Position numbers and translations under genes: made by a program
DNA from: a virus
Lineage: Duplodnaviria > Heunggongvirae > Uroviricota > Caudoviricetes
Reading direction: 5' to 3' (one strand)
IMG/VR virus record: IMGVR_UViG_3300046003_006038
Span: 1 to 64,000 of that record
DNA length: 64,000 nt
The notes under the pieces: generated by a model
Database searches by the model: none
What the model was told of the DNA's origin: nothing
Seen by the model: only the letters and a program-made list of their open reading frames with translations
In this document: positions 24,814-40,217 of the stretch, in pieces
Layout: each line of letters begins with the position of its first letter
How positions within the stretch are numbered: position 1 is the stretch's first letter

Positions 24814-26040
24814 TTAGTTCTTACATACTATTAGATTATTCTGATATTCTTCTAAAGAGTTAATAGTTAACTTAAATATATCTAGTTCAAACTCTCCTAC
24901 CTCTCCACTCTCTTTTATTATTTCCGGCAATTGTTGAATAATATTAAAGGATTGTTGAGTGAATTGTTTTGCATCAAACTCTAATACAATATCATTTTCT
25001 AACTTAGGATCGTTATACTCTATAGTATATATTCTCTTTGATAAGTCAAATTTAGTATTTAACTGCTCCTTGTCAATATAATGTGAGGTAATAACCTGCA
25101 TAGTATCGTCTATGTATATTCTATCGCACCAAGGTTCTAATACTTCTAGTACCTGTAAATTAGAGTTTTTAATTACATAGGCTATGTTATATTTCGGCGG
25201 AACTTTTGGCATCATAAGTTCATCATGTAGTACATTACTTCCCCATTTTCTCCACCACTCTCTGAATTTAATTGCTCTTAATGCTTTGTATTCTTCAGAG
25301 TCTTTTGGCTTATACCAAATTGTCCCATCTGGTAAAGGAATCTCAGCCTCTATCTCTAATCCATCTTTAAACCTACTTCCTCTACAAGTCATATGGTATG
25401 TCAAAGAATCTCTTGATTGTATTAAATCATATCCGGCTAAGTACATTCTATTGAAGATATCCGAGTCTTCTAATTCCATTGGAGCAAATAACTTGTCATG
25501 TCCTCCTATGGCTTGAAAGTCTTCTTTATTCATACACCATGGAGCAAAGATTCCATTTGTTGTTTGATCTTTGTATACAGTTTGACTCTCTTTTACAAAT
25601 TGTAAGAAGTCTTCTTTCTTAAACTCTTCCGGCTCTGTTCCAAACAGTCTTACAAACTTCTCAGGCCCTGGAGGATGTAGAGGCGGTTCAACTCTAGTAG
25701 CTGCTACAACTGTTTTATCTTTTAAATGCTTAAGTAAGTTCTCTACATATCCTGGAGCTACAACCATATCGGCGTGAAGTATGCTGAATACTTCTGTCTT
25801 AGATATCTCAACTCCTTTGTCATATAGAATGGTATGTCCTTGTCTTTCTGGACCTTCGTTTCTGTATTTAATTATGTTATCTCCTTTTAAGGATTGAATC
25901 CAATCCCAAGTACCATCTGTTGATGCATCGTCTAATAAAACAATATCATGCTGAGTTCCGTAATGCTCTTGTATAGAACCAACTGCTTGTTTTAAGTATT
26001 TTAAATTATTCCTGGAAGGAATTATAAAACTTATTCTCAT
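24814..26040 (-). CDS. glycosyltransferase family 2 (GT-A) with C-terminal extension
   Basis: RISFIIPSRNNLKYL...LLDDASTDGT (GT2 N-terminal signature, DxD-type). Confidence 0.65.
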   Translation of the reverse strand: MRISFIIPSRNNLKYLKQAVGSIQEHYGTQHDIVLLDDASTDGTWDWIQSLKGDNIIKYRNEGPERQGHTILYDKGVEISKTEVFSILHADMVVAPGYVENLLKHLKDKTVVAATRVEPPLHPPGPEKFVRLFGTEPEEFKKEDFLQFVKESQTVYKDQTTNGIFAPWCMNKEDFQAIGGHDKLFAPMELEDSDIFNRMYLAGYDLIQSRDSLTYHMTCRGSRFKDGLEIEAEIPLPDGTIWYKPKDSEEYKALRAIKFREWWRKWGSNVLHDELMMPKVPPKYNIAYVIKNSNLQVLEVLEPWCDRIYIDDTMQVITSHYIDKEQLNTKFDLSKRIYTIEYNDPKLENDIVLEFDAKQFTQQSFNIIQQLPEIIKESGEVGEFELDIFKLTINSLEEYQNNLIVCKN

Positions 26041-26807
26041 TTTAATTTATTATATACATTTTCAATTCCTTGCTCTAATCCGATAAAAGCTATTGGAAGC
26101 TCGGTAAAGGTCCCTATATAATTCTCTCCTGGTAGAGGATCTTCTATGTTAATTGGTACTTTATTTATTGATAAATGGTTATTTATGTAATTAGCTATTT
26201 TGCTTAATGATACTGTATCTTCATATATGCAGTCTACTTCTTTTAAAAGATCTTTACCCTCCATGTAATATACTATTGTAGAGATTAGATCAGGCATGTA
26301 TATAAAGTCCATTAACCTATCTTGGTATACTACCATAGGTTCGTTGTTAAGAACCTTTCTAATACTGGATTTAATAAATCGAGTATCGTTTTCATTTTCA
26401 TCAAACACTGCAAATACTCTTAAGGTATAGAAATCATCATACTTGTGAACTAGTTTATTGATAATATTTTTGCTATGACCATATGGAGTGTCCGGCAAAT
26501 ACCTTTCTGCTCCCGAACCTATATTGATTAGCTTCTTAAAGTGATCTTTTTTTGATAGTAAGTTATAGAACATAACTAAATTCCAGAACGATATAGTCTC
26601 ATCAGGATCTCTAGTATTAGCTACTCCTTTTATAGCAGTATGTATAACAACATCGAACTGCTTATTCTCAAAAAATTTATCTACAGAAGATTTATCAGTT
26701 AAGTCTAATTCATCTTTCCCAGGAGCTATTATATGGTACCTACTCCATAAAGTATTAGTAATACTTTTAGCAATATACCCTTTTCCTCCTGTAACTAATA
26801 TTCTCAT
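26037..26807 (-). CDS. NAD-dependent epimerase/dehydratase (SDR) family protein
   Basis: MRILVTGGKGYIAKS Rossmann GxxGxxG; start trimmed to MRILVTGG. Confidence 0.55.
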   Translation of the reverse strand: MRILVTGGKGYIAKSITNTLWSRYHIIAPGKDELDLTDKSSVDKFFENKQFDVVIHTAIKGVANTRDPDETISFWNLVMFYNLLSKKDHFKKLINIGSGAERYLPDTPYGHSKNIINKLVHKYDDFYTLRVFAVFDENENDTRFIKSSIRKVLNNEPMVVYQDRLMDFIYMPDLISTIVYYMEGKDLLKEVDCIYEDTVSLSKIANYINNHLSINKVPINIEDPLPGENYIGTFTELPIAFIGLEQGIENVYNKLK

Positions 26808-26808
26808 A

Positions 26809-27345
26809 TTACTTCTCTTTACTAAAATCCCCAAATTCAACTAAGATAGTATTTATGCCATCTACTCTATTTAGAGCTTTTTTATAAGCAGGTACAATAT
26901 CTTCAGGTTCAAATAACTCTACAACTTCTATATTACGATTCATCTGCCTGAAAGCCTCCGAGAAGTTTCCTTTGTGTTGACATTGAGGGTCAACTGGTCT
27001 TTCGCTACCTACTGCTACTCGTATAATAACTTTAGGATCTAACTTACCATTAGACATTTCAATAAACTTATCCAGGTGATTAACTATTTGATCAACTCCC
27101 ATAAGTAGGAAATTCCATCTAGGATATGTTGATACAGGTATCATGCCTTCAATTGCCATTCCATTTGCTAGTCCTGTTTGAAAATATTCGGCCACTGGAA
27201 GTTCTAATTTCTTTTCAGCTGGTAGGTGAGACATGGTATCAAATAGTCCAGTTCCTTCGTACTCTACTGCTTGACCTATAAAGAACGTCTTAGGATGTTC
27301 TGCTAACAAGCTCATTGCTTTCTGTAACTCTTCAAAGTATTTCAT
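26809..27345 (-). CDS. TPP-dependent enzyme, beta (pyrimidine-binding, transketolase/E1-beta-like) subunit
   Basis: FFIGQAVEYEGTGLFDTMSHL...AEYFQTGLANGMAIEGMIPV matches the transketolase Pyr-domain pattern. Confidence 0.55.
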   Translation of the reverse strand: MKYFEELQKAMSLLAEHPKTFFIGQAVEYEGTGLFDTMSHLPAEKKLELPVAEYFQTGLANGMAIEGMIPVSTYPRWNFLLMGVDQIVNHLDKFIEMSNGKLDPKVIIRVAVGSERPVDPQCQHKGNFSEAFRQMNRNIEVVELFEPEDIVPAYKKALNRVDGINTILVEFGDFSKEK

Positions 27346-27354
27346 ATCTCTATA

Positions 27355-27981
27355 TTAAAATTGAACTCTCATTCCTGCTCCGGCGTGAGGGTATTTATTA
27401 TTAGTATACTGATAGTATATTAAATTCTTCTGTCTTAACAGCCCTCCTGTATACTCTGATTCAAGATAATACGGTCTTTCTCTCTTCCAGATATCCGGTG
27501 TAGGAGTGCACACTGATTTTTTATTATCCTCTACAACAAAAGTTATTGGTAGGTCATGATTCAAACTGTACTTATAAGCTTCGTGAAATGCTCCTGTTTC
27601 GGCTGACATATCTCCTACCCAGCACCAAACTCTATTTGATTTTCCTTGAAGTTTAATTGCTAATGCAATACCTGCTGCTATGGAAGGAATACCTCCTACA
27701 ATAGAGCTGCATACAAATTTATACTCTGGAAGATTAACCACCATAGATTTCCCTTCTAGAATATTCTTTTTCATTACTTCAGCTGGAATTCCTTTTAATA
27801 ATCCTTGGTAATGGTTTCTCCAGGTACAGCACACCCAGTCATTTTCTACATCGACATCTTTAAACAATTCTATCATTAAATCCTCATTACCCGAATAGAG
27901 GTGTATAGGTGCTTTAATTTCACCCCTATTGAATGAATCCCCAATTTCTGTTTCAAATTGGATTAATTGTTCTCTTACCAT
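27355..27981 (-). CDS. TPP-dependent enzyme, alpha (PP-domain, transketolase/E1-alpha-like) subunit
   Basis: GDMSAETGAFHEAYKYSLNHDLPITFVVEDN is a TPP-binding GDG-X(25-30)-N motif. Confidence 0.6.
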   Translation of the reverse strand: MVREQLIQFETEIGDSFNRGEIKAPIHLYSGNEDLMIELFKDVDVENDWVCCTWRNHYQGLLKGIPAEVMKKNILEGKSMVVNLPEYKFVCSSIVGGIPSIAAGIALAIKLQGKSNRVWCWVGDMSAETGAFHEAYKYSLNHDLPITFVVEDNKKSVCTPTPDIWKRERPYYLESEYTGGLLRQKNLIYYQYTNNKYPHAGAGMRVQF

Positions 27982-28931
27982 ATAAATTTTTCTCTATAAT
28001 ATTCTACAATATACTTTAATTCAGTATCAAAATTAATTTGAGGCTTCCATCCTAATGCTCTCAACTTATCATCATTTAAAGCATATCGAACATCCTGCCC
28101 TTGTCTATCGTATGAGAAGTCTACAAAGTCTTCTAACATATAATCTTGATCTTTATTGTACAATATAAGAACTTTTTTGATAGTATCCAAATTACTTTGC
28201 TCAAATCCTCCACAGATATTAAAGATTTCATTCTGCACTCCTGATTCGATTATCTTCACAACAGCATTGGCTGTATCCTGAGCATGAAGCCAAGTTCTGA
28301 TTGGAGTACCGTTATTGTGTAAAGGAATCTTTTTGCCTAGCTTTAAATGCTTCAATGTTTTTGGAATTAGTTTTTCAGTATACTGCCCAATTCCGTAGTT
28401 GTTAGTTGGACGAACAATTACATATGGAAGGTTGTAAGTCCTACCCCATGCTGTTACAAGCATATCTGCTGCAGCTTTTGTAGCTGAATATGGATTGGAA
28501 GGTTTAAGTAAATCTGTTTCAACATGCTCTCCTTCTTCAATATCGCCATATACTTCATCTGTGCTAAAGTGGAGTAGTGTAGGTTTTGTTGAATGTTCTC
28601 CTCTATGATTCTTAATTAACTCTAATAGGTTATGAACTCCATTTACATTCGAAGATACAAACTCATCTGAATTAGCAATTGAATTACCTACGTGAGTCTC
28701 AGCTGCTGTATTGATTATATAATCACAATCATATAGAAACTTCAAATCGTTAATATCACAATCAACAAAAGAGAAGTTACTGTATTCTTTAAATTCTTTT
28801 AATAGAGTTTTATTGGCTGCATATGTTCCTTTATCAACTCCTTTAACATACCATCCTCTATCAAGGCATACTCTTGTTACATAGGATCCTATAAACCCTA
28901 GACAACCTGTTACGTAAACTACTTTCGTCAT
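27975..28931 (-). CDS. NDP-sugar 4,6-dehydratase (RfbB/dTDP-glucose 4,6-dehydratase-like SDR)
   Basis: VVYVTGCLGFIGS Rossmann; YSATKAAADMLVTAWGRTYNL (YxxxK); ~318 aa. Confidence 0.65.
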   Translation of the reverse strand: MTKVVYVTGCLGFIGSYVTRVCLDRGWYVKGVDKGTYAANKTLLKEFKEYSNFSFVDCDINDLKFLYDCDYIINTAAETHVGNSIANSDEFVSSNVNGVHNLLELIKNHRGEHSTKPTLLHFSTDEVYGDIEEGEHVETDLLKPSNPYSATKAAADMLVTAWGRTYNLPYVIVRPTNNYGIGQYTEKLIPKTLKHLKLGKKIPLHNNGTPIRTWLHAQDTANAVVKIIESGVQNEIFNICGGFEQSNLDTIKKVLILYNKDQDYMLEDFVDFSYDRQGQDVRYALNDDKLRALGWKPQINFDTELKYIVEYYREKFIW

Positions 28932-28932
28932 T

Positions 28933-29604
28933 TTATTCTTTATATAAGTGTTGTGAAAAATCTACTGCATCTACATAGTCCTGATACAGATTAAATACAC
29001 TCTTGTACTTTGAATCTATACCTGTGCCGATCCAAAATTCACATTGATGGCGTTCATCAAATATTAACGGCATCTCTTTTGGATGTTGTAATTTATTAAT
29101 GTGGCTTGCTCTTGTCCACCAAAAGTTCTGTGAGAAATGACGTACTGGGTTATATATCAGTTCAGCACCTACTACATCGTATTCTTTTAAGAACTCTAAA
29201 CTCTCCCTGTACCTAGTTACATTCCAGTGTAGTTGATATTTTCTGACATCTTCAATCCATTTATATTCTGGAACTTGTGTTGAATTGCTAGATCCTTTTG
29301 TATGTAGGTACAATATATTATCTGTTGGATTATACTTACAGTGTTTAATTATTTTATCTAGTGTTGGAAATTCCCAAGCATGTACATTTGTTCCGTTGTA
29401 ATTTATTTTACCCTTAGGTACATTAAACCTAATATTTGGATCCCCTAATAGTTCTAAATTAATTTCATCGACATCTGTATATATTTTTGAATCTAATATA
29501 TGTTGAGCTATTTCATCAACTATTGCTTGACATCTTCCATGGTTATTGTATCCATTCTTGTCTATCAGTAGGTTTGCTGCATGAATAAATATAATGTTTC
29601 TCAT
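28933..29604 (-). CDS. hypothetical protein in glycan locus
   Basis: ORF in track, translationally coupled. Confidence 0.55.
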   Translation of the reverse strand: MRNIIFIHAANLLIDKNGYNNHGRCQAIVDEIAQHILDSKIYTDVDEINLELLGDPNIRFNVPKGKINYNGTNVHAWEFPTLDKIIKHCKYNPTDNILYLHTKGSSNSTQVPEYKWIEDVRKYQLHWNVTRYRESLEFLKEYDVVGAELIYNPVRHFSQNFWWTRASHINKLQHPKEMPLIFDERHQCEFWIGTGIDSKYKSVFNLYQDYVDAVDFSQHLYKE

Positions 29605-30413
29605 ATTGCAGTCCAGGTATTTGGATAGTAATTTTTATTTATAAATTGACTTTCTTTGTCAGAAGGTCCAATATAGTCTTCCGGGCAAACAACTATTTTA
29701 TTTGGATTGTTGTTTAAATAAGCACCCCACCAACTAAAGCTAGAATTTGCAATTATGTTATGATCACATAAAGACATCATACACATATCTACATAATTTG
29801 AATTACCTTCACTAAAGTGTATATTATCCCCTACTAGTACTTCTTTACACCATTCTATATCGTCTGAGAATACTAATAGTTTAAAGTATGTAAATTTTTC
29901 TAAGAATATATTTATAGCTTCATTATAGTAATCTAGTGTAAGATTTAGTGAAGAAACTTCTAAATAATCTCCTCTTCTAAAATGTACAGAAACTATAGGG
30001 TAGTTCTCACCTTCTTTTACCTCTTCTACCTTACTAATAGCTTCAGCTAATATACTCTCCTTAAATTTAAAAGCATCCTTAATAAGATTTTCATACTTAT
30101 CCCAGTAGTGGTATAGGTGGAACCATCCCTGTATATCCCAATTAGTATTTGGATCTAGATTAAAAACTTCTTTATCACATATTTTCTCTTTAAGAGTGTA
30201 TATAGAGTGAGTTCCTTCTGAAATACTTTTGATTGGATGTTTCAAATCAAACGCTTCAAATAACCTTACTCCTCTAAACAGTTCCATATATTCTTTGAAG
30301 AATACAATATCACTACCTAAGTGTTTTGAGAGTGCCAGCAAGCCAGCGTACTGGCTCATCTGCGAACCAAACTGAGGCCCTATTGAGAGGTTTGTTTTTG
30401 TTATATAGTTCAT
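29601..30413 (-). CDS. GT11-family alpha-1,2-fucosyl/colitosyltransferase
   Basis: IVSVHFRRGDY and SSFSWWGAYL motifs are diagnostic of GT11 (FutC/WbsJ/WbgN). Start trimmed to MNYITK after the internal promoter at 30424-30462. Confidence 0.7.
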   Translation of the reverse strand: MNYITKTNLSIGPQFGSQMSQYAGLLALSKHLGSDIVFFKEYMELFRGVRLFEAFDLKHPIKSISEGTHSIYTLKEKICDKEVFNLDPNTNWDIQGWFHLYHYWDKYENLIKDAFKFKESILAEAISKVEEVKEGENYPIVSVHFRRGDYLEVSSLNLTLDYYNEAINIFLEKFTYFKLLVFSDDIEWCKEVLVGDNIHFSEGNSNYVDMCMMSLCDHNIIANSSFSWWGAYLNNNPNKIVVCPEDYIGPSDKESQFINKNYYPNTWTAI

Positions 30414-30423
30414 TATTATTTTA

Positions 30424-30462
30424 TCTTTTATTAATATACGAAATACTCTTCTACTATACAAC
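30424..30462 (-). promoter_or_regulatory. internal family-type promoter within glycan locus
   Basis: aatatacgaaatactcttctactatacaact (TTG-N20-TATATTAA on the minus strand). Confidence 0.4.
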
Positions 30463-31299
30463 TTTATAGTGATCGATAAGTTTTTGCACAATTTCATCAA
30501 TACTATATTCACAGTTGTATCCAAAATTTCTTAACTTTGTTGTATCCAAGTATGAATTTTTTACCTGTACGATATTGTGAAAATGTGTAGGTTCTATATT
30601 AATAATCTGAGAGTTTGAATTAGCTTTTTTAATTGCTTTTTTAATAATGTTTAAGAATAAGTAAGGTTTTCCGCTTCCTATATTTATAATCTCGTCTACA
30701 GGTGCATTCTCTATACAGTGGTGTATTGCTTTACATACATCATCTACGTAAATATAATCTCTAAGTACATTTCCTCCGTAATATAATTCTACGTCTCTAC
30801 CTTCAACAATTTCTTTAATTAAGAACTGTAGTGCATTTTTCTTTTTAGAAATTTTTTGATCTCCTTCTCCTAGTACATTTGCTAGTCTAAATATTCTGTA
30901 CTTTACATTATACGTATTACAAAAACTTATAATTAACTGTTCTGCACATCTCTTTGTAATAGAGTAAAAGCCTGTAGGATTACAGCTTAGGTCATCTTCT
31001 TTAAAAGGAGTCTTATCATTTTGTCCGTATACAAACCAGGAGCTAATAAAATTAAAAGTTGTATCTGGATTATCTTTTATATGCTCTAGAACATTTAATA
31101 AAACTTTTAAGTTTGTATCTACATCTACGTGTAGGTCTTTGTGTATATTATAATTGTCAATCGTACTAATAAAATACAATACTTCTTTTGATTGTGGCTT
31201 ATAGTCTAATCTTTCATTTATAATAACTTCATCTGAATATAATGAACAGTACCTGCTTCCTATGAATCCTGTTCCTCCAAAAATATTTACTTTTTCCAT
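30454..31299 (-). CDS. NAD-dependent epimerase/dehydratase (SDR) family protein
   Basis: VNIFGGTGFIGS; YSITKRCAE (YxxxK). Confidence 0.6.
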   Translation of the reverse strand: MEKVNIFGGTGFIGSRYCSLYSDEVIINERLDYKPQSKEVLYFISTIDNYNIHKDLHVDVDTNLKVLLNVLEHIKDNPDTTFNFISSWFVYGQNDKTPFKEDDLSCNPTGFYSITKRCAEQLIISFCNTYNVKYRIFRLANVLGEGDQKISKKKNALQFLIKEIVEGRDVELYYGGNVLRDYIYVDDVCKAIHHCIENAPVDEIINIGSGKPYLFLNIIKKAIKKANSNSQIINIEPTHFHNIVQVKNSYLDTTKLRNFGYNCEYSIDEIVQKLIDHYKVV

Positions 31300-31371
31300 A
31301 TAACTATTGTATTAAGTTTGCTTTACTAACATGTTGTAGAGGTTACCTCTATGTCTGGTAATTCTATTTTA

Positions 31372-32016
31372 CTATTCATATTGTTCTAATTTTGATATTT
31401 CGGTGCGTGCTGCTTCGTATAACTTTCCATGAAAGCCAAAAGTATTTTTTAAATTATATTCACATTCAGGTATTGCATGTTCTAGTGAAAATCTAGCTGC
31501 TACTTCAACCGGTGCATACTTACATCCATTCTGTTTAAAGTAGCCGTAATACGTGTTTGTTACTAGTACGTCGTTATGTGCTTCTGTATAAGGAATACTT
31601 TCTTCTAAGTTTAAAAATTTTTTACTCTTTAGTACAAATCCTCCATTACCTACTCTGTTCCTTTTACACCATTCTAATCCATCAGGCCAAGGTGCTCCTA
31701 TATAGTCGTATTTGAGAAAATCATCATCCCAGTTATGTGGATTAATAATAAATCCATCATCATGAATAGATAACATATACTCGTTATCAATATACTTAGG
31801 AAGAGTGTTTAAATGAAACCAATTCATTGTATTATGAGATTGCTTCTCTATTTCTATATACTCTATATGATCTGGAAGATTGGAAGGCCTGTAATGTGCA
31901 AGTAATTTTATAGAACCAAACTTTATCTGTTTTGAGCTATACAAAAGAGCTTTTACAGACTCCTCTGGGTTAACACAATTTACTGATATTAGATCTATTT
32001 TTGAAAGGTCTTTCAT
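31372..32016 (-). CDS. hypothetical protein in glycan locus (possible novel glycosyltransferase)
   Basis: ORF in track. Confidence 0.5.
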   Translation of the reverse strand: MKDLSKIDLISVNCVNPEESVKALLYSSKQIKFGSIKLLAHYRPSNLPDHIEYIEIEKQSHNTMNWFHLNTLPKYIDNEYMLSIHDDGFIINPHNWDDDFLKYDYIGAPWPDGLEWCKRNRVGNGGFVLKSKKFLNLEESIPYTEAHNDVLVTNTYYGYFKQNGCKYAPVEVAARFSLEHAIPECEYNLKNTFGFHGKLYEAARTEISKLEQYE

Positions 32017-32990
32017 TATATTGTCTTAAATAAGTTTTCTATATAATAATTCTCTATTTCCTTCTGTTTAACTGTACATCCATATGCCATATGAATTCCG
32101 TAACAGTTTCTTACGTATACTGGAGATCTATCAGTAATGTTTGCGTACATTGTTAACTGTCCTTCATCCCAATTATCAAAGAAAACTTTCTGTGCTTCTA
32201 AATAAAATTCTGTTTTTGCTATAAATAAATTATTACAGAAGTAAGGTGTTAGGTATTTTTCTAAAAAAAGTTCTGAGTTATTCAGTACAAGTTCTTTCTT
32301 CTCTGCTGCATGTCTAGCAATGTACATGTTGTAGTCGTAAGAGAATCTGGCAGGATGTACCCCTTTAACTATGCTGTAGAACCATGGTAGCCCTTCCCTT
32401 CCTTTTACAGGATTAATCCTATCTACTAACTTCCAATAGTCTTCTCCATTCCATGCACTTAATCCCTCTATGTACCTAAACACTTCAGAATAATTACATC
32501 CAAAAATATTCGGATCTATATTATCTTTCAGAAAAATTTTATATACATCCTCTTTTTCTTGTTCTGTTAAAAAATCTTGTAGAAATAACTCTACAGAAGG
32601 CATTCCATTTGATAATGTAGGAGCTAACACTGACACGGTAGGGTCATTTAGTATACCTCTATTTTCAATCATATAGTCCCAGACATGTCGATTTACAAAA
32701 ACATCATCATCCCATTTACAGAAATATTCTGTTGTTGTTTGTTGAGCTACTTGCATCTTATGTTCGTAGGCATCTGTTGGCATACTAGCTAGAGTAGCCT
32801 CTATGCCTGCTTCTACTACTGGGTATAATATTTCTTCCCAAAGTCTGTTATCATTTTCATGACAGTACACGTAAAGCTGTATTTCTTTCTTGTTACCTTC
32901 TTTAATGTTTACAAGTTCTTTTAAAGCTGCTTTTACTAAAGGTAGTCTGTATTTATTCTGTGAACTGTTAAATAAGTTAATCTGTATCAT
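32016..32990 (-). CDS. hypothetical protein in glycan locus
   Basis: ORF in track; ATGA overlap. Confidence 0.55.
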   Translation of the reverse strand: MIQINLFNSSQNKYRLPLVKAALKELVNIKEGNKKEIQLYVYCHENDNRLWEEILYPVVEAGIEATLASMPTDAYEHKMQVAQQTTTEYFCKWDDDVFVNRHVWDYMIENRGILNDPTVSVLAPTLSNGMPSVELFLQDFLTEQEKEDVYKIFLKDNIDPNIFGCNYSEVFRYIEGLSAWNGEDYWKLVDRINPVKGREGLPWFYSIVKGVHPARFSYDYNMYIARHAAEKKELVLNNSELFLEKYLTPYFCNNLFIAKTEFYLEAQKVFFDNWDEGQLTMYANITDRSPVYVRNCYGIHMAYGCTVKQKEIENYYIENLFKTI

Positions 32991-33777
32991 CTGGTAGTAA
33001 TTTGTACTGTAAATCTGTATTTAGAACTCTAGCAAAATAGTTTACATTAGAGTTAGTGCAACATAGTAACATGTTAGCTTTGGATAGTAAGTATGCTTCT
33101 ACAATTACATCTTCGCCTACATAGTACTTACTACATTTATAGTCATTAGCATAATGTAACGGGATATCATTATTGCTTCTAAAAGTTGCAGGATACTCCA
33201 CTACTTTATCGCCAAAAGCTTTCTTTATTGCATCTACTCTATTCTGCTCATCAGATGCTATGAAAAGCACATCGTACTCATCTATGTACTTTTTAATACG
33301 TTGAATATAGAAATCCATAGAAAGTTTATCTGGATGATCTGTACCTCTACAATGTACTCCTAATACTCTTTTTCCTTTAAAGTGAGTATTGTAAAAACTG
33401 TTAATTTTAGACTCTACATGAGGAAGAAGTTTTACGTACTTTTTTACTATTTCTCCATACTCTTTACGTTTAACTTTATAGTCTTCCGGGGTGGTGTATA
33501 TGTCCCTAAATTCACTAAACTCATCATGAAGTAATCCTACCTCTGATAAAATTTCAGAAGAAGTAGGCTTAGTGTCTGTGTGAGGTTGTTCAAAGTAGTA
33601 TTCCCAAACGTTCTCTATTTCTTGTTGACGGTACATTTCTTCATCGAAGTAGCAAGATTCTCTACCAAAATGTATGTAGTACTTATCGTTAGGGTAGTGG
33701 TACATTCCTCTTATTGTTTGCCAAATAAAAGCAAACATCCCTGAGTTGTGTTGTGTGGGGTGTAAATATCTGTACAT
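32977..33777 (-). CDS. putative fucosyltransferase-like glycosyltransferase (GT23/NodZ-like motif)
   Basis: GVHCRGTDH resembles the H(V/I)RRGD motif of GT-B fucosyltransferases; weak. Confidence 0.35.
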   Translation of the reverse strand: MYRYLHPTQHNSGMFAFIWQTIRGMYHYPNDKYYIHFGRESCYFDEEMYRQQEIENVWEYYFEQPHTDTKPTSSEILSEVGLLHDEFSEFRDIYTTPEDYKVKRKEYGEIVKKYVKLLPHVESKINSFYNTHFKGKRVLGVHCRGTDHPDKLSMDFYIQRIKKYIDEYDVLFIASDEQNRVDAIKKAFGDKVVEYPATFRSNNDIPLHYANDYKCSKYYVGEDVIVEAYLLSKANMLLCCTNSNVNYFARVLNTDLQYKLLPDDTD

Positions 33778-35432
33778 TAATTAATTAATTTTTTAAAATA
33801 CTTATTAAATAACTGATCATTGTCGTAAGCGTACTGTTTAGCTTTTTCAAAATTCTCTTTAATATATTCCTCTCTGGAGAGGTAATCCTGTTCTGTTAGG
33901 TTGTTAATTATTTCAAGAAGCTCTTCCTCTGTATTAAATATAAGAAAACCTTTTGTATTAAAAAACTCACTAATATTTTTACAACCTCTGTAAATTGGAA
34001 TAACCCCTGTTAGAAAACAGTCTAATATTTTTTCTGTAAAATAATTATCATGTACTCCATTTTCAATTGCTATAGAAAATTTATAATCTCTTAGCCCTTC
34101 AATTTTACCTTGAACTTCTCTTATGCCCACTCCGTATAGATCTACATTAGGTATTTTAAGGTCAATAATCTTTTGAGCACATCCTACCCTAAACCTATGC
34201 CCCTCTGTCATTCCTTTGTTAGAAGTAATAAAAGAGATATGTTTCGGTTTATCTCTGTATATCTGAATTAAGGTACTATCCTGAAGAAGTGGATGTTCTG
34301 CTCTGTGTACATTTTTATTTAAAACAGCTTCGTAACCTCCATTTCTAAACACGGCATTCGGTAACTTAAGTAACTCTTTATCGAAAGTTAGTATTAGGTC
34401 AAACATTTGGCTATTCTCTTGCACAGCAGTATATACTTCGTTCTGGGAGAGTAGGTGTGGAGCTTCATGTACATCTGCTACAATCAGTCCCCTATTTATT
34501 TTTATCTCACCTTTTACAAATCTTAGTATTTCTGTATCTTCAATAAGAGTTATGTCAAATTCCCCATCTTGTAAATTATACGTATAAGAAAATGTCTGAG
34601 GTATACTATTCTTTTCTCTAAAGCTACCTACTATGTTTATTTGAGGTAATTTTTCACCTGACAGGTTCTCCTTATACTTCTTTCTATTTCTAATTTCTAT
34701 TTCGTACTTACTGTTATCAATACTTTCTCTTTCGTGAGTACGTACTTGATTAGCCTTACTGTGGTTGTACACACAGTCGTAAAAATCTACTACTTGAATC
34801 TTCTCTTTAGGGCACATCTCCATACACGGATATTGGAAAGCTAAATCTGCTGCATGCCAATAATACTCCCCATCTTGTAAAGACCTTAAATCCTCTAGCT
34901 TAACTGCTTGCAATAGAAATGCCCTATAGGTCCTTAAGTGAGAAGCTCTCCAGTGATCTTGACGGTACATTTTATATTTATGTACAAAATCTGAATGCTC
35001 TGTTGATTGAGGATATGGTAGTGTTGATTCTGCTTCTGGTCCATTCCATACAATGAATCCTCCATATGTCATCCAGCAGTCTTTTTCATTATAAAAAGCA
35101 TTAAGCTTTTCTAAAACTGTTTCATCATATAACCAGTCATCCCCATCTAAGTGAATTACTATCTCTTCAGGATCCTCTATATAATCGTTTAGGTTATGGA
35201 AGTAGTTATACATAGCTCCTTTATTTTGAGAATTTTTTATAACATTCCAATTAGGAAGCTCTCCTACAACTTCTTTTACTTTTTCATAAGTATTATCTGT
35301 AGAAGCATCATCTATATAGGTAACTTTGTAGTTTGTATATGTTTGGTTTAGAATACTTGCAAGATTGTATTCAATCCACTCTTCATTGTTATAGGAGGGT
35401 GTTATTATTCTAAACTTATTTTGCTTTTCCAT
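33777..35432 (-). CDS. two-domain glycosyltransferase: N-terminal GT2 + C-terminal GT10-like (alpha-1,3-fucosyltransferase motif)
   Basis: N-terminus IITPSYNNEEWIEYNLASILNQTY...IDDASTDNT (GT2). C-terminus YKFSIAIENGVHDNYFTEK matches GT10 (YKFxLAFENS..DYVTEK). Confidence 0.6.
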   Translation of the reverse strand: MEKQNKFRIITPSYNNEEWIEYNLASILNQTYTNYKVTYIDDASTDNTYEKVKEVVGELPNWNVIKNSQNKGAMYNYFHNLNDYIEDPEEIVIHLDGDDWLYDETVLEKLNAFYNEKDCWMTYGGFIVWNGPEAESTLPYPQSTEHSDFVHKYKMYRQDHWRASHLRTYRAFLLQAVKLEDLRSLQDGEYYWHAADLAFQYPCMEMCPKEKIQVVDFYDCVYNHSKANQVRTHERESIDNSKYEIEIRNRKKYKENLSGEKLPQINIVGSFREKNSIPQTFSYTYNLQDGEFDITLIEDTEILRFVKGEIKINRGLIVADVHEAPHLLSQNEVYTAVQENSQMFDLILTFDKELLKLPNAVFRNGGYEAVLNKNVHRAEHPLLQDSTLIQIYRDKPKHISFITSNKGMTEGHRFRVGCAQKIIDLKIPNVDLYGVGIREVQGKIEGLRDYKFSIAIENGVHDNYFTEKILDCFLTGVIPIYRGCKNISEFFNTKGFLIFNTEEELLEIINNLTEQDYLSREEYIKENFEKAKQYAYDNDQLFNKYFKKLIN

Positions 35433-36376
35433 TTATCTATACTGTAATATTTCTTGTAATTTTCCTTAGACGTTGTACTACATTTCTGATAAAACTCTTT
35501 ATCATCTCTTAACCTTTCAGCCAGCATTACTGCTTTCTCTACATCCTCTACATCTACTGCTAGGTCTGGATGACAAAGTCTTTGTGTGTCTACTTTCTCA
35601 TTTCCTATACAAGGTATACCGAAGTAAGCACAATTCAAACTAAATGTACCAGCTGCAACGGTTGGCATAAGGTGTACAGCGTATTTGAATGAACTTAACT
35701 GTTCCATCCAATCTGTCCACATAACTCTTGGTAAATGATTTATCAACTGATCCTCTCCCTCTCTCATTGCATGAGAAGTCTGTCCCCATATTGGAACATC
35801 AAACCTCTGTGCTACTGTAAAGCTTTCCATACCTCCATACCATCTAGCAAAATTACCTCCTATAATAACTTTTTCTTCTCTAATAGGTTGAATATCTTCT
35901 ACTATAGAATCAATCATTAGAGTAGGAATAACGTGCACAGGTACGTTAGTAAACATTCCTTTATAGTATTTTACATCGTGTTGGTTATGTGCAAAGATAC
36001 CGTCTGAGGAGATGAGCATATTATAGAATAATACTTGATCGATCATTTTATAATCATTCCACCACCAGTGAGGTCCTTCCTGAACTATATACACTTTTTT
36101 ATTGGTAAGCTTTAATCTCTCTACTGGCTCTTTTATTAAAAGTTCACTTACTGGATTCTGATCATCTGCAAGTTGACTTCCTTCTGCACTTAAGTATAAC
36201 TTTCCTTTAGGAAAAATAATAAAGACATGATCATATCCCTCTACTTCTTGAAAGTGATGTATGTACCTATGATCGGCATTTAAAGCATGCATCCAAGCAA
36301 ACTCTGTTCGCATATTAGAGTGGTTAGAGGGAATCTTTCCCTCAAAACCCATCTCTGTTAGGAATGCTATCTTCAT
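35405..36376 (-). CDS. hypothetical protein in glycan locus
   Basis: ORF in track. Confidence 0.55.
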   Translation of the reverse strand: MKIAFLTEMGFEGKIPSNHSNMRTEFAWMHALNADHRYIHHFQEVEGYDHVFIIFPKGKLYLSAEGSQLADDQNPVSELLIKEPVERLKLTNKKVYIVQEGPHWWWNDYKMIDQVLFYNMLISSDGIFAHNQHDVKYYKGMFTNVPVHVIPTLMIDSIVEDIQPIREEKVIIGGNFARWYGGMESFTVAQRFDVPIWGQTSHAMREGEDQLINHLPRVMWTDWMEQLSSFKYAVHLMPTVAAGTFSLNCAYFGIPCIGNEKVDTQRLCHPDLAVDVEDVEKAVMLAERLRDDKEFYQKCSTTSKENYKKYYSIDKWKSKISLE

Positions 36377-36377
36377 A

Positions 36378-37688
36378 TTATTTATTGAAGAACTTATCTA
36401 CGATTGTTTCTATATATTCAATTTGCTCTAAAGTAATAACTGGAGAGCATCCTAAGAAGAAAGTATCTGTTGTTACTTTTCTTGATACTGGATATTTTTC
36501 AATTACTTCTTTAGGGTCAATTAAATGAGAGTATCCTGGCTGAAGCATAATGTTACCTGCAAAGTAAGGTCTTGTTTGAATCTTATTTGCTTCTAAGTAT
36601 TGACAGAACTCAGCTCTTGTAAAGTCCATTCCATCTTTAACTGTTAATGCAACTGCAAACCAATCTGGATCTGATTTATCAGTAGCTTTAGGAAGGATAA
36701 ACTTATCTTCATACTTTTTAAAGATGTCAACAATTGCTTTATGATTTCTTCTTCTTATTACTCCAATCTCTTCTAACTTACCTAACTGAACATTACCCAT
36801 TGCAGCTTGTAATTCAGTTGGTTTTAAATTGTAACCAATTTCTTCATAAGTATATTTATGGTCAAATATTTCATTAGGCAAACTTGGTAACCAATTGCTG
36901 AATCTTATTCCGCATGAACCGCACTCTAAAGCATTTGCCTTACCTTGACAGTAACATCCTCTACCCCAGTCTCTAAAACTTCTTAAGATTTTTTCTAGCT
37001 GTGGATCACTACATGCTACAAATCCTCCTTCACCCATCGTAATGTGATGTGCTGGATAGAATGAACATGAGGACATTTTACCGAATGATCCTAACATCTT
37101 ACCATTATAAGTTGTTCCTAAAGCATCACAGCAATCTTCTAATAAGATTAAATCGTATTTGTTTACAATTTCCATCAATCGATCCATGTTAGGTGGATTA
37201 CCTAATACGTGAGCAAATGTAACCACTTTAGCATCTGGATGATCAATACATGCTTGCTCTACTTGATCTAAATCTAAGTTTAAAGATTCTAATTCAATAT
37301 CAACAAAGATTGGTGTAAAGCCTGCTTGAATGGTAGGACTTAAAGTAGCTGGGAATCCAGCAATTGGAGTAATTACTTTCGTACCTTTTGGTAAGTTCAT
37401 TCCTCTTTTAGATGTTAAAGCTAACATCATTAGTAGATTAGCACTAGAACCGCTATTAACAATAACTCCGGTCTTGTGTCCTAGTTTTTTAGGAAACTTT
37501 CTTTCGAACATTGCTCCTTCTTTTCCTAAAACCAACCAACCTTCTAGCATAGTCTTAACTACAGCTTGATATTCTTTTTCGTCAAAATAAGGTCCGGCAT
37601 ACTGAACTAAGTCCTCTCCTGCTACCCACTTTTTTTCACTGTTCTTTTTTGTAATGTGCTCTTGTACTAAGCTTAAAATTTGATCCAT
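36378..37688 (-). CDS. NDP-4-keto-6-deoxyhexose 3-dehydratase (ColD/E1 family, DegT/DnrJ/EryC1 fold)
   Basis: SFYPAHHITMGEGG has His where aminotransferases of this fold have the PLP-Lys. CC...57 aa...CYC-X8-C-X2-C cysteine pattern as in E1-type [2Fe-2S] dehydrases. Start trimmed to MDQILSL after the promoter at 37698-37745. Confidence 0.6.
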   Translation of the reverse strand: MDQILSLVQEHITKKNSEKKWVAGEDLVQYAGPYFDEKEYQAVVKTMLEGWLVLGKEGAMFERKFPKKLGHKTGVIVNSGSSANLLMMLALTSKRGMNLPKGTKVITPIAGFPATLSPTIQAGFTPIFVDIELESLNLDLDQVEQACIDHPDAKVVTFAHVLGNPPNMDRLMEIVNKYDLILLEDCCDALGTTYNGKMLGSFGKMSSCSFYPAHHITMGEGGFVACSDPQLEKILRSFRDWGRGCYCQGKANALECGSCGIRFSNWLPSLPNEIFDHKYTYEEIGYNLKPTELQAAMGNVQLGKLEEIGVIRRRNHKAIVDIFKKYEDKFILPKATDKSDPDWFAVALTVKDGMDFTRAEFCQYLEANKIQTRPYFAGNIMLQPGYSHLIDPKEVIEKYPVSRKVTTDTFFLGCSPVITLEQIEYIETIVDKFFNK

Positions 37689-37697
37689 ATAACTGAT

Positions 37698-37745
37698 TTT
37701 ATTTGTTTTATTAATATATGAAATTATCTTATTGCTGGCAACTAT
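37698..37745 (-). promoter_or_regulatory. internal family promoter
   Basis: aatatatgaaattatcttattgctggcaact. Confidence 0.5.
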
Positions 37746-38721
37746 TTTTATAATAATTCTCCCAGTATTCAATCATTTCATCCAACATACTTTCAAAAGT
37801 ATATTCATGCTTCCATCCTGTTGTTTCAACTAACTTAGAGCAATCTCCTTTCAAGTCATGTAATTCTTCTGGACGTAAGAATTTTTCATCCTGCTTAACA
37901 TATTCCTTCCAATCTAATCCTAGCTTACTAAATACATATTCACATAACTCTTGTACCGAATGTGATACTCCTGTTGAGCAGATAAAATCATCTGGCTTGT
38001 CTTGTTGAAGTATTAACCACATTGCATAAACATAGTCCTTAGCATGACCCCAGTCTCTTGTGGCATCTAAGTTCCCTAGCTTTAATTCATTCGATAGACC
38101 TAATTTAATCTTAACTGCTTCTTTACATACTTTATTTGTAACAAAGTTTGTACCTCTGCGAGGTGATTCATGATTAAATAGGATACCGTTTGATACAAAC
38201 ATACCATAAGAGTTACGGTAATTTCTACTAATGTTATATGCAAATACCTTAGCACATCCGTAAGGTGATACTGGATTGAGTGGTGTAGTTTCTCTTTGAA
38301 ATCTATCCTCATCAATACTATTTCCAAACATTTCTGAAGATGATGCTTGGTATATTTTTGTTTTAGGGGATACAAGCCTTACTGCTTCAAGGATATTTAA
38401 TGTACCTATTCCTGTTGTATTGGCTGTATATAGGGGTTGGTCGAAGGATATTCTAACATGCGATTGTGCTGCTAAATTATATAATTCATCTGGCTGTACC
38501 TTTGCAACAACCCTTACCAGTGATGCTAGGTCTGTAAGGTCAGCGTACTCTAGCTTGATACTACTGTATACTGCATCTAATCTTGCTGTTTGATTTTCAG
38601 CTACAGAATTCCTCTTTACTGTTCCCCATACTTCATATCCCTTTTCTAGGAGTAATTCAGCTAAGTATGATCCGTCTTGTCCGTTTATTCCTGTTATAAG
38701 TGCTACTTTATTTTCTCGCAT
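37729..38721 (-). CDS. gmd: GDP-mannose 4,6-dehydratase
   Basis: KVALITGINGQDGSYLAELLLEKGYEVWG and NGILFNHESPRRG; near-collinear with E. coli Gmd. Confidence 0.85.
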   Translation of the reverse strand: MRENKVALITGINGQDGSYLAELLLEKGYEVWGTVKRNSVAENQTARLDAVYSSIKLEYADLTDLASLVRVVAKVQPDELYNLAAQSHVRISFDQPLYTANTTGIGTLNILEAVRLVSPKTKIYQASSSEMFGNSIDEDRFQRETTPLNPVSPYGCAKVFAYNISRNYRNSYGMFVSNGILFNHESPRRGTNFVTNKVCKEAVKIKLGLSNELKLGNLDATRDWGHAKDYVYAMWLILQQDKPDDFICSTGVSHSVQELCEYVFSKLGLDWKEYVKQDEKFLRPEELHDLKGDCSKLVETTGWKHEYTFESMLDEMIEYWENYYKNSCQQ

Positions 38722-39616
38722 TATCGTAATTTTCTATAAACCATTTAACTGTTTCTTTTATCCCTTGTTCAATTGAAGTGTACTTAAAGTCTGGAAGATA
38801 TCTTTTTACCTTTTCATTTGAAGAAGGTTTTCTAAATTGTCCATCTGGCTTATCTGTTTCAAAAATAATATTTCCTTTATAATTAAACTCCTCAGCTATT
38901 AGCCCTACCAAGTTTTTAATACTTATTTCCTCTGAGGTTGTAAATATGATTGGTTCTTCTTCGTCGTAATTCTCAACAGCCCATTTAGCTAATTCAGCTA
39001 CATCTTTAGAGTAGATAAATTCTCTTAAAGGCTTCCCCGTACCCCATACTTTGAAGTCTGTTTTATTTTGTATTGCTAAATACATTTTATGTAGAAGCAT
39101 CGGAACTACATGTCCATGTTCTAAAGAGAAGTTATCATTTGGTCCGTATATGTTTGTTGGAATTACAGAAGTATATTTCAATCCATACTGCTCTCTATAG
39201 GCTCTAATTTGTATATCTGCTAGACGTTTAGCATAGGCATAAGGATAGTTTGAACTGTGAGGAAATCCATTATGTACTTGGTCTTCTGTTAGAGGATAGT
39301 TTACTTTGTCTGGAAATACGCAGGTAGATAAAAATGATACTAGATTTGTAACTCCAGCCAATCTAGCTGATTCAATAACATTTGTATTGATCATTACATT
39401 ATCATATAAGTACTCTCCTTTGTACTTCATATTTCCTCCAAGACCTCCTACCTTTCCTGCACAGTGAATAACGTGAGTTGGTTTATGCCATTCAAACGCC
39501 TTTAGAGTTTCTTCTGGGTTGGTTAAATTATACTCTCTTCCTAATTTTACATCAGCATCAATAGCCGATCCTACCAATCCTTTTCCTCCTGTTACTAATA
39601 GTTTAGAGTGTGTCAT
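38708..39616 (-). CDS. GDP-L-fucose synthase-like 3,5-epimerase/4-reductase (Fcl/ColC family)
   Basis: LLVTGGKGLVGSAI; SNYPYAYAKRLADIQIRAY; IPTNIYGPNDNF; VWGTGKPLREF - collinear with E. coli Fcl. Confidence 0.8.
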   Translation of the reverse strand: MTHSKLLVTGGKGLVGSAIDADVKLGREYNLTNPEETLKAFEWHKPTHVIHCAGKVGGLGGNMKYKGEYLYDNVMINTNVIESARLAGVTNLVSFLSTCVFPDKVNYPLTEDQVHNGFPHSSNYPYAYAKRLADIQIRAYREQYGLKYTSVIPTNIYGPNDNFSLEHGHVVPMLLHKMYLAIQNKTDFKVWGTGKPLREFIYSKDVAELAKWAVENYDEEEPIIFTTSEEISIKNLVGLIAEEFNYKGNIIFETDKPDGQFRKPSSNEKVKRYLPDFKYTSIEQGIKETVKWFIENYDNARK

Positions 39617-40217
39617 AGTAATTATTTTGTTTTTCTTGTCTGTCGATTGTCTTTGGATGGTATAAGGCCCATTCCTCTTCTACCGGAAGCATACCATGTA
39701 TCTTAAATCCTTCTAATACTTCGTGTACTTTATTTTTCCATCTTATATGAGGAGCATTCTTATAGATTCTCATTTGCCAATCAGCCCAGTTGACCCATCC
39801 TTTTTCATTCACATGCCATCCCCACTTCTGAATATGTTCTTGAGTTAAACCCTCTACAGTATTTACTCTAGGGATTCTAAGCATATCGACATCATTAGTC
39901 TTCAGCATTTCAGGAAGATTTTGTATCAAATTGATATGAGGAATTTCATCAGCATCTATATTGAAGATATAATCTCCTGTACAGTATGATGTTAGTAAGT
40001 TTTTCCAATTAGCAAAATGATTTTCAAAATCATGAACTGCTACTGTAGTTTGGTGTGCTATTGAGGTTAGGTAGTCTTTTACTATCTGTGTTCCGTTCTT
40101 CTCATCAAATAGGATTACTATCTCATCTTCTGTACGTTTGTTGGAAAGGAGGAAAGAAACTAAACGTTTAATTTCCTCCAATTCATTACAAACTGTTATT
40201 GCATAACTAATTTTCAT
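39603..40217 (-). CDS. glycosyltransferase family 2 (small)
   Basis: ISYAITVCNELEEI...DADE (GT2-like, DxD). Confidence 0.55.
   Translation of the reverse strand: MKISYAITVCNELEEIKRLVSFLLSNKRTEDEIVILFDEKNGTQIVKDYLTSIAHQTTVAVHDFENHFANWKNLLTSYCTGDYIFNIDADEIPHINLIQNLPEMLKTNDVDMLRIPRVNTVEGLTQEHIQKWGWHVNEKGWVNWADWQMRIYKNAPHIRWKNKVHEVLEGFKIHGMLPVEEEWALYHPKTIDRQEKQNNYYDTL

Follow-up and report, generated by a model that had tools for sequence, protein, structure and literature searches.

The stretch of DNA analysed here, in the following called the window, comprises 64,000 nucleotides (positions 1-64,000 of the virus record IMGVR_UViG_3300046003_006038), and the feature under study occupies positions 36378-39616. 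Here three co-oriented open reading frames (ORFs) lie side by side on the minus strand. They encode an epimerase/reductase resembling GDP-L-fucose synthase (Fcl), a GDP-mannose 4,6-dehydratase (Gmd) and an enzyme of the DegT fold, which we call E1A. An earlier note on this DNA had described the three neighbours correctly as to presence, adjacency and fold, and had joined them into a single route to GDP-colitose. The relatives of the phage tell a different story. E1A is inherited together with another set of genes, and the whole region of about 24.8-40.2 kb on the minus strand is best read as a hypervariable glycan-synthesis cassette of an Immutovirus-like Flavobacterium phage. Judged from sequence, this cassette rather probably holds two independent sugar-nucleotide modules, one for GDP-L-fucose and one for a yersiniose-like, C4-branched 3,6-dideoxyhexose.

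E1A (36378..37688, minus strand) is a predicted NDP-4-keto-6-deoxyhexose 3-dehydrase (NDP, nucleoside diphosphate) of 436 amino acids, dependent on pyridoxamine 5'-phosphate (PMP) and a [2Fe-2S] cluster. The mechanical ORF (36378-37772) opens at a TTG, but the start is most likely the ATG at 37688, since the homologues have 433-438 residues and align over 100% of the protein. E1A scores 262.8 bits against Pfam DegT_DnrJ_EryC1 and, with 461.9 bits, exceeds the cut-off of 423 of the NCBIfam equivalog model for RfbH (NF011936). The E1 of Yersinia (PDB 3bcx) is matched end to end with 345 bits and 41.5% identity, whereas ColD reaches 177 bits, with 28% identity to the ColD of E. coli O55.

The active site points in the same direction. 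In an alignment with E1 and ColD, H214 (37047-37049) of the motif SFYPAHH falls on His220 of E1, and there is no conserved lysine; the replacement of the lysine that binds pyridoxal 5'-phosphate (PLP) by histidine had been recognized correctly. Of the cysteine pattern reported before, C187-X57-C245-Y-C247-X8-C256-X2-C259, the spelling is exact, and C187 (37128-37130), C245 (36954-36956), C247 (36948-36950) and C259 (36912-36914) align with the cluster ligands C193, C251, C253 and C261 of E1; C256, however, is conserved in only 37 of 64 homologues. H214 and the four ligands are invariant in these 64 distinct phage sequences (63-100% identity), which argues that the cluster is kept by selection. 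ColD, a His-type DegT enzyme that carries no iron-sulfur cluster and is regenerated by glutamate, lacks a cysteine at all four positions. By its sequence, the window dehydrase is of the E1/RfbH type and not, as had been proposed, of the ColD type. ColD hydrolyses its intermediate and does so without a reductant, while E1 needs two electrons, which are delivered via E3 (PMC8987622). Exact-sequence look-ups of the window dehydrase returned no record. A recent host donor, which close cellular homologues would have marked, was considered and rejected: one genome scan gave only relatives of at most 45-46% identity. Those at 45-46%, from two Clostridium species and the single-amplified genome of a Nanoarchaeota member, have a thiamine diphosphate (ThDP) enzyme of the acetolactate synthase (ALS) type within a few kb.

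To which pathway E1A belongs can be read from its company in related phages. The comparison set amounted to about 200 related phage contigs. E1A, at 63-100% identity, is found in 86 loci (6 from metagenome assemblies, 80 from IMG/VR), onto which the proteins of the window cassette were mapped. Of the 52 loci having at least 9 kb of downstream sequence, 49 contain an RmlB-like 4,6-dehydratase, here called DH46, and 50 contain a ThDP enzyme; of the 43 having both flanks, 13 contain Gmd and 4 contain Fcl. Dereplication at 95% E1A identity leaves 23 groups, of which 22 contain DH46, all 23 the ThDP enzyme and 21 a reductase of the short-chain dehydrogenase/reductase (SDR) family; Gmd and Fcl, counted among 21 groups, occur in 6 and 3, respectively. 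These numbers do not support joining the three neighbours into a single route to GDP-colitose. The locus L002, for instance, has the dehydrase, DH46, the ThDP pair and the reductase, and lacks both Gmd and Fcl. The usual layout is the dehydrase followed, often directly, by the 4,6-dehydratase. In the window, about 7.4 kb of glycosyltransferase genes separate E1A from DH46, and Fcl-Gmd stands in front of E1A. Against the usual layout, the intervening 7.4 kb are read as an insertion and the adjacency of E1A, Gmd and Fcl as a product of cassette shuffling.

The partner genes of E1A all lie, like the other cassette genes described below, on the minus strand. DH46 (27975..28931, 318 amino acids) is an RmlB-like NDP-hexose 4,6-dehydratase with the catalytic motifs STDE and YSATK. 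Among the NCBIfam models it scores best against dTDP-glucose 4,6-dehydratase (304.7 bits, below the cut-off of 365), followed by CDP-glucose dehydratase (75 bits) and Gmd (46 bits), and its best solved structures are all dTDP-glucose 4,6-dehydratases of the RmlB type. The ThDP enzyme is split and resembles the E1 component of pyruvate dehydrogenase (PDH). Its ThDP-binding (PP-domain) subunit (27355..27981, 208 amino acids) carries a GDM-X27-N motif from residue 123 and matches Pfam E1_dh with 58.1 bits, the NCBIfam model of PDH E1 alpha with 77.7 bits (far under the cut-off) and the structure of human PDH E1 alpha with 30 bits. The pyrimidine-binding (Pyr-domain) subunit (26809..27345, 178 amino acids) matches Pfam Transket_pyr with 27.7 bits at a cut-off of 27 and the NCBIfam model of PDH E1 beta with 49.3 bits; in the related loci it always adjoins the alpha-like subunit. 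Directly downstream of the ThDP enzyme follows an SDR of 256 amino acids (26037..26807, from the ATG at 26807; Pfam Epimerase 74.7 bits, RmlD_sub_bind 53 bits), which is proposed to be a YerF-like reductase of the branch carbonyl and is likened to YerF/ErwF by role and position.

The association was also scanned in the reverse direction. DH46 loci with good flanks contain the ThDP enzyme in 41 of 41 cases and E1A in 30 of 41. In some of those lacking E1A (L235, L252, L253), a third E1-type orthogroup that has the histidine and the cysteines is located upstream of DH46, either adjoining it or less than about 1 kb away. In others (L203:8859-9998, also L225 and L263) a DegT protein of 380 amino acids lies upstream of DH46, at similarly short range; it has the histidine (SFYASH) and none of the four cluster cysteines, and shares 34% of its residues with the window enzyme and 29% with ColD. 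This protein looks as if it used a ColD-like mechanism and had either arisen within the module or been swapped into it. The slot of the 3-dehydrase is conserved while its occupant changes, and this strongly supports the role assigned to the dehydrase.

The gene set is reminiscent of a known bacterial scheme. The biosynthesis of yersiniose A, erwiniose and caryophyllose proceeds through a 4,6-dehydratase, E1/E3, a ThDP enzyme and a reductase, to which an aldolase may be added (PMC9306805). There CDP-4-keto-3,6-dideoxyglucose, the product of E1, is the acceptor for the ThDP carboligase YerE/ErwE, the reductase YerF/ErwF acts next, and ErwI (an aldolase) and ErwJ (a dehydrogenase) build longer donors (PMC9306805). 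The 4,6-dehydratase and the E1-type 3-dehydrase of such a pathway are both present in the window and co-inherited; the carboligase accompanies them in every dereplicated group, and YerE-like single chains occur in sister loci. Because this co-inheritance and the sister genes match the published gene logic, E1A is assigned to a four-step branched route, of which we infer the substrates and the order of steps. DH46 would produce an NDP-4-keto-6-deoxyhexose. E1A would then strip off the C3 hydroxyl via a PMP Schiff base, with His214 as acid/base and two electrons passing through the [2Fe-2S] cluster. The split ThDP enzyme (26809-27981) would add an acyl group, most simply acetyl from pyruvate, onto the C4 ketone, and the SDR would finally reduce the side-chain carbonyl to yield the yersiniose-like 4-C-branched 3,6-dideoxyhexose. 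In the other module, Gmd would convert GDP-mannose to GDP-4-keto-6-deoxymannose, from which the eukaryote-like synthase would make GDP-L-fucose; this product may serve the cassette's enzymes of fucosyltransferase families (a GT10 domain and GT11).

The sister cassettes vary the theme. The ThDP slot exists in three mutually unrelated architectures: the split E1_dh/Transket_pyr pair of the window, a single chain of 580 amino acids of the ALS/YerE type, and a split transketolase-like pair. All three are found inside one 95%-identity E1A group. At L183:15559-20898, at L014:15878-17730 and on a 29-kb contig of P0089, an ALS-type ThDP enzyme is accompanied by an acetylating acetaldehyde dehydrogenase and a 4-hydroxy-2-oxovalerate aldolase, and the latter two score over their NCBIfam cut-offs. 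An HpcH/HpaI aldolase is encoded at L021:12265-13065, a NeuB-like synthase in other sister cassettes. Such aldolase, dehydrogenase and synthase genes suggest branches longer than two carbons.

Gmd (37729..38721, 330 amino acids) matches Pfam GDP_Man_Dehyd with 398.4 bits over the full profile and TIGR01472 with 399.5 bits, under the cut-off of 415. It aligns with solved GDP-mannose 4,6-dehydratases at 1e-99 and is 47% identical to the Gmd of E. coli O55. The Fcl-like protein (38708..39616, 302 amino acids) belongs to Pfam Epimerase (1.5e-46) and reaches 229.6 bits with NCBIfam Fcl, under the cut-off of 500. Both proteins match solved enzymes over their full length at 1e-95 to 1e-99, so that the window contains Gmd as well as a candidate for the GDP-4-keto-6-deoxymannose 3,5-epimerase/4-reductase. 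Among solved structures, the human GDP-L-fucose synthase 4e5y comes closest to the Fcl-like protein, with a full-length phmmer score of 321.7 bits, whereas E. coli Fcl gets 172 bits. Such a strong leaning towards the human enzyme and its eukaryotic relatives, rather than towards E. coli Fcl, is unusual for a phage gene. With the ColC of E. coli O55, whose counterpart it had been thought to be, the Fcl-like protein shares 29% identity (144 bits by BLASTP). ColC and fucose synthase, it should be added, perform the same chemistry, and on sequence alone a 3-deoxy substrate is conceivable for the window protein.

The pair also has an inheritance of its own. An Fcl homologue is encoded in 30 viral loci; in 26 of these Gmd is its direct neighbour, and only 4 of the 30 contain E1A. 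The sister phages L093 and L094 show the order GT2-Fcl-Gmd-GT11 with no dehydrase within their available sequence, and the Immutovirus-like contig L092 contains GT2, Fcl, Gmd and a GT11-like gene, likewise with no dehydrase up to its end, about 400 bp past the GT11 gene. By homology and by this pattern, Gmd and the Fcl-like protein are probably a module for GDP-L-fucose. A DNA-level search of isolated phages returned cyanophage Gmd fragments as the only matches. Elsewhere, at L035:12308-13540, a C-methyltransferase (Methyltransf_14, as in sugar C-methylases) adjoins a divergent Gmd-like gene of 47% identity, with no Fcl; this arrangement, seen in some sister cassettes, hints at another branched or methylated deoxysugar. 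A bacterial cluster in Clostridium aestuarii (L187, 1752-11278) contains a trio of Gmd, a DegT-family protein and an Fcl-like protein, in a layout resembling that for colitose, together with an ALS-type ThDP enzyme beside an E1-type dehydrase. It holds both modules, and their pairing is therefore not peculiar to phages.

Between E1A and DH46 lie three genes that recur in another context. The GT11-family glycosyltransferase (29601..30413, 270 amino acids from the ATG at 30413) had been named as such before, and its score against PF01531 (Glyco_transf_11; 96.8 bits at a cut-off of 23.9) bears this out. It is 46% identical over 114 residues to WbgN, the colitosyltransferase of E. coli O55, and its donor could be GDP-fucose or a 3,6-dideoxyhexose. 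Upstream of it is an SDR reductase/epimerase of 281 amino acids, Epi281 (30454..31299; Pfam Epimerase 111.2 bits), which has YSITK and carries SSW instead of TDE. Its candidacy as a second 4,6-dehydratase was rejected for want of the TDE motif; it is a possible 4-ketoreductase that would give an unbranched 3,6-dideoxyhexose. The third gene encodes a DUF5672 protein (31372..32016, 214 amino acids; Pfam DUF5672 59.6 bits), which travels with Epi281 and GT11.

The other context is that of a second E1-type orthogroup, E1B, found at L091:7963-9249 and in 60 further loci among L117-L181 (61 in total). E1B is 43% identical to the window protein, retains the histidine and the cluster cysteines, and reaches 364.7 bits with the RfbH model, which is under the cut-off. 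In nearly all loci an SDR reductase comes after it, and roughly one locus in three adds GT11-like and DUF5672 genes. Epi281 homologues (46-55% identity) come directly after E1B in 29 of the 61 loci, with GT11-like and DUF5672 genes next in 14 of these 29. GT11-like genes thus occur both after Fcl-Gmd (L092-L094) and after E1B and its reductase. No close homologue of DH46 is found near E1B, and a ThDP enzyme only in L171; a full Gmd-Fcl pair lies ahead of it in 13 of 61 loci. The same scan also met an E1A-like gene beside DH46 in L178-L180, which is not counted as E1B. From its surroundings, E1B is a candidate for a GDP-linked E1-type 3-dehydrase, and a better one than E1A. The "hybrid" that the earlier note had seen in the window gene, an E1-type enzyme acting on a GDP sugar, fits E1B better; among these phages, enzymes of the E1 type may have been co-opted for GDP sugars.

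The supply of electrons and of the starting sugar nucleotide is the awkward part of the branched route. The plant-type ferredoxin motif was absent from every ORF of the window and of the 86 related E1A loci in a motif scan run without a positive control, and in the same kind of scan, again without a positive control, the 4Fe-4S, adrenodoxin and rubredoxin motifs were absent from the window ORFs. No E3-type Pfam domain occurs among the neighbour genes. The E3-type reductase that the earlier note wanted sought is, within these limits, missing, and so is any dedicated partner of the AscD, DdhD or RfbI type. Electrons would presumably come from ferredoxin or flavodoxin systems of the host, by analogy to SpnQ, which works with general ferredoxin or flavodoxin reductases and transaminates if it has no reductase at all (PMC8987622). 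As to the nucleotide carrier, sister loci encode two types of nucleotidyltransferase, and a search with these turned up no such gene in the window. One, at L003:16782-18158, is fused to a beta-phosphoglucomutase-like domain of the haloacid dehalogenase superfamily in front of it; the other, at L002:7117-8982, is a fusion of 621 amino acids that includes a capsule-phosphatase-like domain. Their matches in NCBIfam and PDB are only weak and generic, and no carrier is inferred from them. The starting NDP-hexose is presumably provided by the host, which is the simplest answer.

A number of observations weigh against dividing the cassette into a fucose module and a branched-sugar module, and they should be kept together. 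The only well-studied E1 needs E3, yet none was found in the motif scan, which had no positive control. The partner dehydratase is RmlB-like and not a CDP-glucose 4,6-dehydratase, and we know of no E1-family enzyme that takes dTDP- or UDP-4-keto-6-deoxyglucose with its C2 hydroxyl retained. The subunits of the split ThDP enzyme are short, and the beta-like one is barely at the Pfam cut-off. The counts of co-inheritance lose some of their weight, since the loci are metagenomic and related by descent and do not represent independent events. E1A is 7.4 kb away from DH46 but only 40 bases from Gmd; operon logic alone would favour its grouping with Gmd. Finally, a clean co-occurrence of GT10/GT11 genes with Gmd and Fcl was not found, in part because of truncated flanks, and was not used as evidence.

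The closeness to Gmd speaks for the single GDP route. According to this explanation, Gmd, E1A and the Fcl/ColC-like protein would convert GDP-mannose, by way of GDP-4-keto-6-deoxymannose and GDP-4-keto-3,6-dideoxymannose, into GDP-L-colitose or a sugar like it, with E1A in the place of ColD and GT11 as the transferase. The three genes adjoin one another in the same orientation, WbgN is a member of GT11, and E1B, with its reductase, its occasional GT11-like and Gmd-Fcl neighbours and no close DH46 homologue, points to a possible use of E1-type enzymes on GDP sugars in these phages. Yet E1A tracks DH46 and the ThDP enzymes across the relatives and not Gmd and Fcl, Fcl-Gmd pairs are found without E1A, the Fcl-like protein is closer to human GDP-fucose synthase than to ColC, and E1A, not E1B, is the orthogroup nearest to canonical RfbH (461.9 versus 364.7 bits). 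We regard this route as improbable for the window gene. A different modification would leave the branched route intact and add to it: E1A might feed two products, the branched sugar and a plain 3,6-dideoxyhexose of the abequose/paratose type, made by Epi281 and moved by GT11. Since the window contains at 29601-32016 homologues of the usual followers of E1B (SDR, GT11, DUF5672), such a second, unbranched branch from E1A is conceivable. That Epi281 has YxxxK and lacks the dehydratase TDE would suit it, and the block of Epi281, GT11 and DUF5672 also travels with E1A in L032, L034, L043, L053 and L055. Known GT11 enzymes use GDP sugars, however, whereas the partner dehydratase of E1A is RmlB-like, and Epi281, which no specific family model matches, could serve another pathway. 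The chances of a double use of E1A appear rather low, though better than those of the GDP route.

Least credible is the proposal that E1A dispenses with a reductase altogether and acts as a hydrolytic dehydratase in the manner of ColD or else as an aminotransferase, its cysteines being a relic. It would explain why no E3 or ferredoxin gene turned up in the window or in the 86 E1A loci (with the said reservation as to the motif scan). The cluster-less, His-type DegT protein in the same slot beside DH46 in sister phages indicates that such a route is workable, and SpnQ, as mentioned, can transaminate. But the four ligands are invariant in sequences differing by up to 37% from the window enzyme, which argues that selection maintains the cluster, and a histidine stands where catalytic transamination needs a lysine; this proposal is very unlikely to be right. 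A GDP-L-fucose module plus a yersiniose-like route thus remains our preferred reading. Phage-encoded chemistry of the 3,6-dideoxyhexose type, as the earlier note had proposed, is well supported. More specifically, we infer a phage-borne, E3-less variant of the known bacterial route to acyl-branched 3,6-dideoxyhexoses, with a dehydratase of another subfamily and another ThDP enzyme. Its neighbour would be a conventional module for GDP-fucose, and the cassette that houses both is freely recombined between related phages.

A broader picture can be drawn only tentatively, and we would give it somewhat less than an even chance. A lineage of Flavobacterium myoviruses would possess a swap-in toolkit for acyl-branched 3,6-dideoxyhexoses, with interchangeable 3-dehydrases (E1 types with an Fe-S cluster or a His type without one), three ThDP architectures and several aldolases or synthases that could provide donor keto acids. 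In it, an E1-type enzyme would work without E3 on host electron carriers and a non-CDP sugar, E1B would have moved onto GDP sugars, and the glycans so made would either end up on the virion or alter the surface of the host. No report of phage-encoded genes of the 3,6-dideoxyhexose or yersiniose type was found in the open-access literature.

The surroundings of the cassette are those of a phage. The DNA polymerase (family A) shares 88% identity with its counterpart in Flavobacterium phage vB_FspM_immuto (Immutovirus), and GroEL and exonuclease match families of PHROG as well; the phage origin claimed earlier is borne out. Upstream of the cassette the relatives have a clamp loader, an exonuclease and two GT1 genes in common. 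The upstream edge of the variable part is marked by a GT2 glycosyltransferase of 204 amino acids (39603..40217; Pfam Glycos_transf_2 48.7 bits), which immediately precedes the variable genes in 50 of 87 loci and has a counterpart in phage immuto. At the downstream end lies another GT2 enzyme (24814..26040, 408 amino acids; Glycos_transf_2 69.6 bits), whose homologues come after the reductase in several loci. Inside the cassette, a two-domain glycosyltransferase of 551 amino acids (33777..35432) combines an N-terminal GT2 domain (70.4 bits) with a C-terminal domain of GT10, a fucosyltransferase family (Pfam Glyco_transf_10, 42 bits at a cut-off of 23.9), and there is a weak NodZ-like match. When the isolated phage immuto (L087, MW353176.1 52362-59944) is compared with window positions 24814-40217, the flanking order GT1-GT1-hypothetical-GT2 is seen to be kept, and the same position harbours a wholly different sugar cassette with WecE-type aminotransferases, a methyltransferase and a mannosyltransferase. 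Flanks that stay while the contents change make the locus a hypervariable glycan island.

Farther along in the window, a full-length GroEL-like chaperonin is encoded at 50226-51860 (phrog_5725, 2e-162). A GTP cyclohydrolase-like gene (phrog_5949) lies near genes with formyltransferase and AAA_28 domains (56768-57694 and 58227-58769). Immuto phages feature in a paper on 7-deazaguanine DNA modifications (PMC10516641), for which reason this region may be a DNA-modification module.

Acyl-branched 3,6-dideoxyhexoses have so far been known only from antibiotics and from a small number of surface glycans of bacteria. The branched sugars yersiniose, erwiniose and caryophyllose are rare and strongly antigenic, and their enzymology stems from a handful of bacterial examples. 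If our reading is correct, viruses spend resources on producing unusual sugars themselves, and the phage lineage, with its many recombined versions of the pathway, is a natural library of 3-dehydrases and of ThDP carboligases that attack ketones, which are wanted as biocatalysts for tertiary alcohols. It also raises questions as to the targets of phage glycosylation, the working of E1 without E3 and the use of dTDP or GDP sugars by E1-type enzymes. For annotation the case is a warning: genes that are neighbours in a mosaic phage cassette need not share a pathway.

Among the systems already known, the E1 of Yersinia and Salmonella (DdhC/AscC/RfbH), a CDP-6-deoxy-L-threo-D-glycero-4-hexulose 3-dehydrase, is the nearest to E1A. 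Fold, length, histidine, the four [2Fe-2S] ligands and the C-X57-C-X1-C spacing are the same, but the last ligand follows after X7 in E1 and after X11 in E1A. E1 further differs in having an E3 gene and a CDP-glucose 4,6-dehydratase as partner, whereas the phage-encoded E1A has an RmlB-like partner and no E3 that could be found. SpnQ, the dTDP-4-keto-2,6-dideoxyglucose 3-dehydrase of spinosyn biosynthesis, is, likened by description, an E1 homologue with a [2Fe-2S] motif, a dTDP-type context and no dedicated E3; its substrate, however, is a 2-deoxy sugar, and a 2,3-dehydratase is not seen in the window. The ColD/ColC pathway to colitose in E. coli O55 and Yersinia shares with the window an adjacent Gmd, a His-type DegT enzyme, an adjacent member of the Fcl family and a GT11 in the cluster; it differs in that ColD lacks the Fe-S cysteines that E1A has, and the window's three genes are not co-inherited.

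For the branched-sugar module, the pathways to yersiniose A, erwiniose and caryophyllose, which combine DdhA-D with YerE/ErwE and YerF/ErwF, offer the same enzyme functions, and a set of the ErwE/ErwJ/ErwI type is present in sister loci. They use the single-chain YerE where the window has a small, split PDH-E1-like pair, their dehydratase is of another subfamily, and they have E3 and a cytidylyltransferase, neither of which was found in the window. Split PDH-like enzymes have precedents in AviB1/AviB2 and Pau11/Pau12, for which a role in adding acetyl branches at C4 of antibiotic sugars has been proposed (PMC4753412). AviB1/AviB2 resembles the phage pair, again by description, in its dependence on ThDP, in its two subunits of the PDH-E1 alpha/beta type and in its place in a deoxysugar cluster, with a ketoreductase adjacent. 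These systems belong, however, to Gram-positive antibiotic producers, and their phage counterparts, with subunits of 208 and 178 amino acids, are far smaller.

The fucose module has viral parallels. The Gmd genes of cyanophages, like the window pair, are a case of GDP-fucose synthesis carried by viruses. Chloroviruses, too, encode GMD and GMER, that is, Gmd plus an epimerase/reductase, beside glycosyltransferases. What sets the window pair apart is its place in a swap-in cassette of a Flavobacterium myovirus, next to what would be a second pathway, for a rare sugar.

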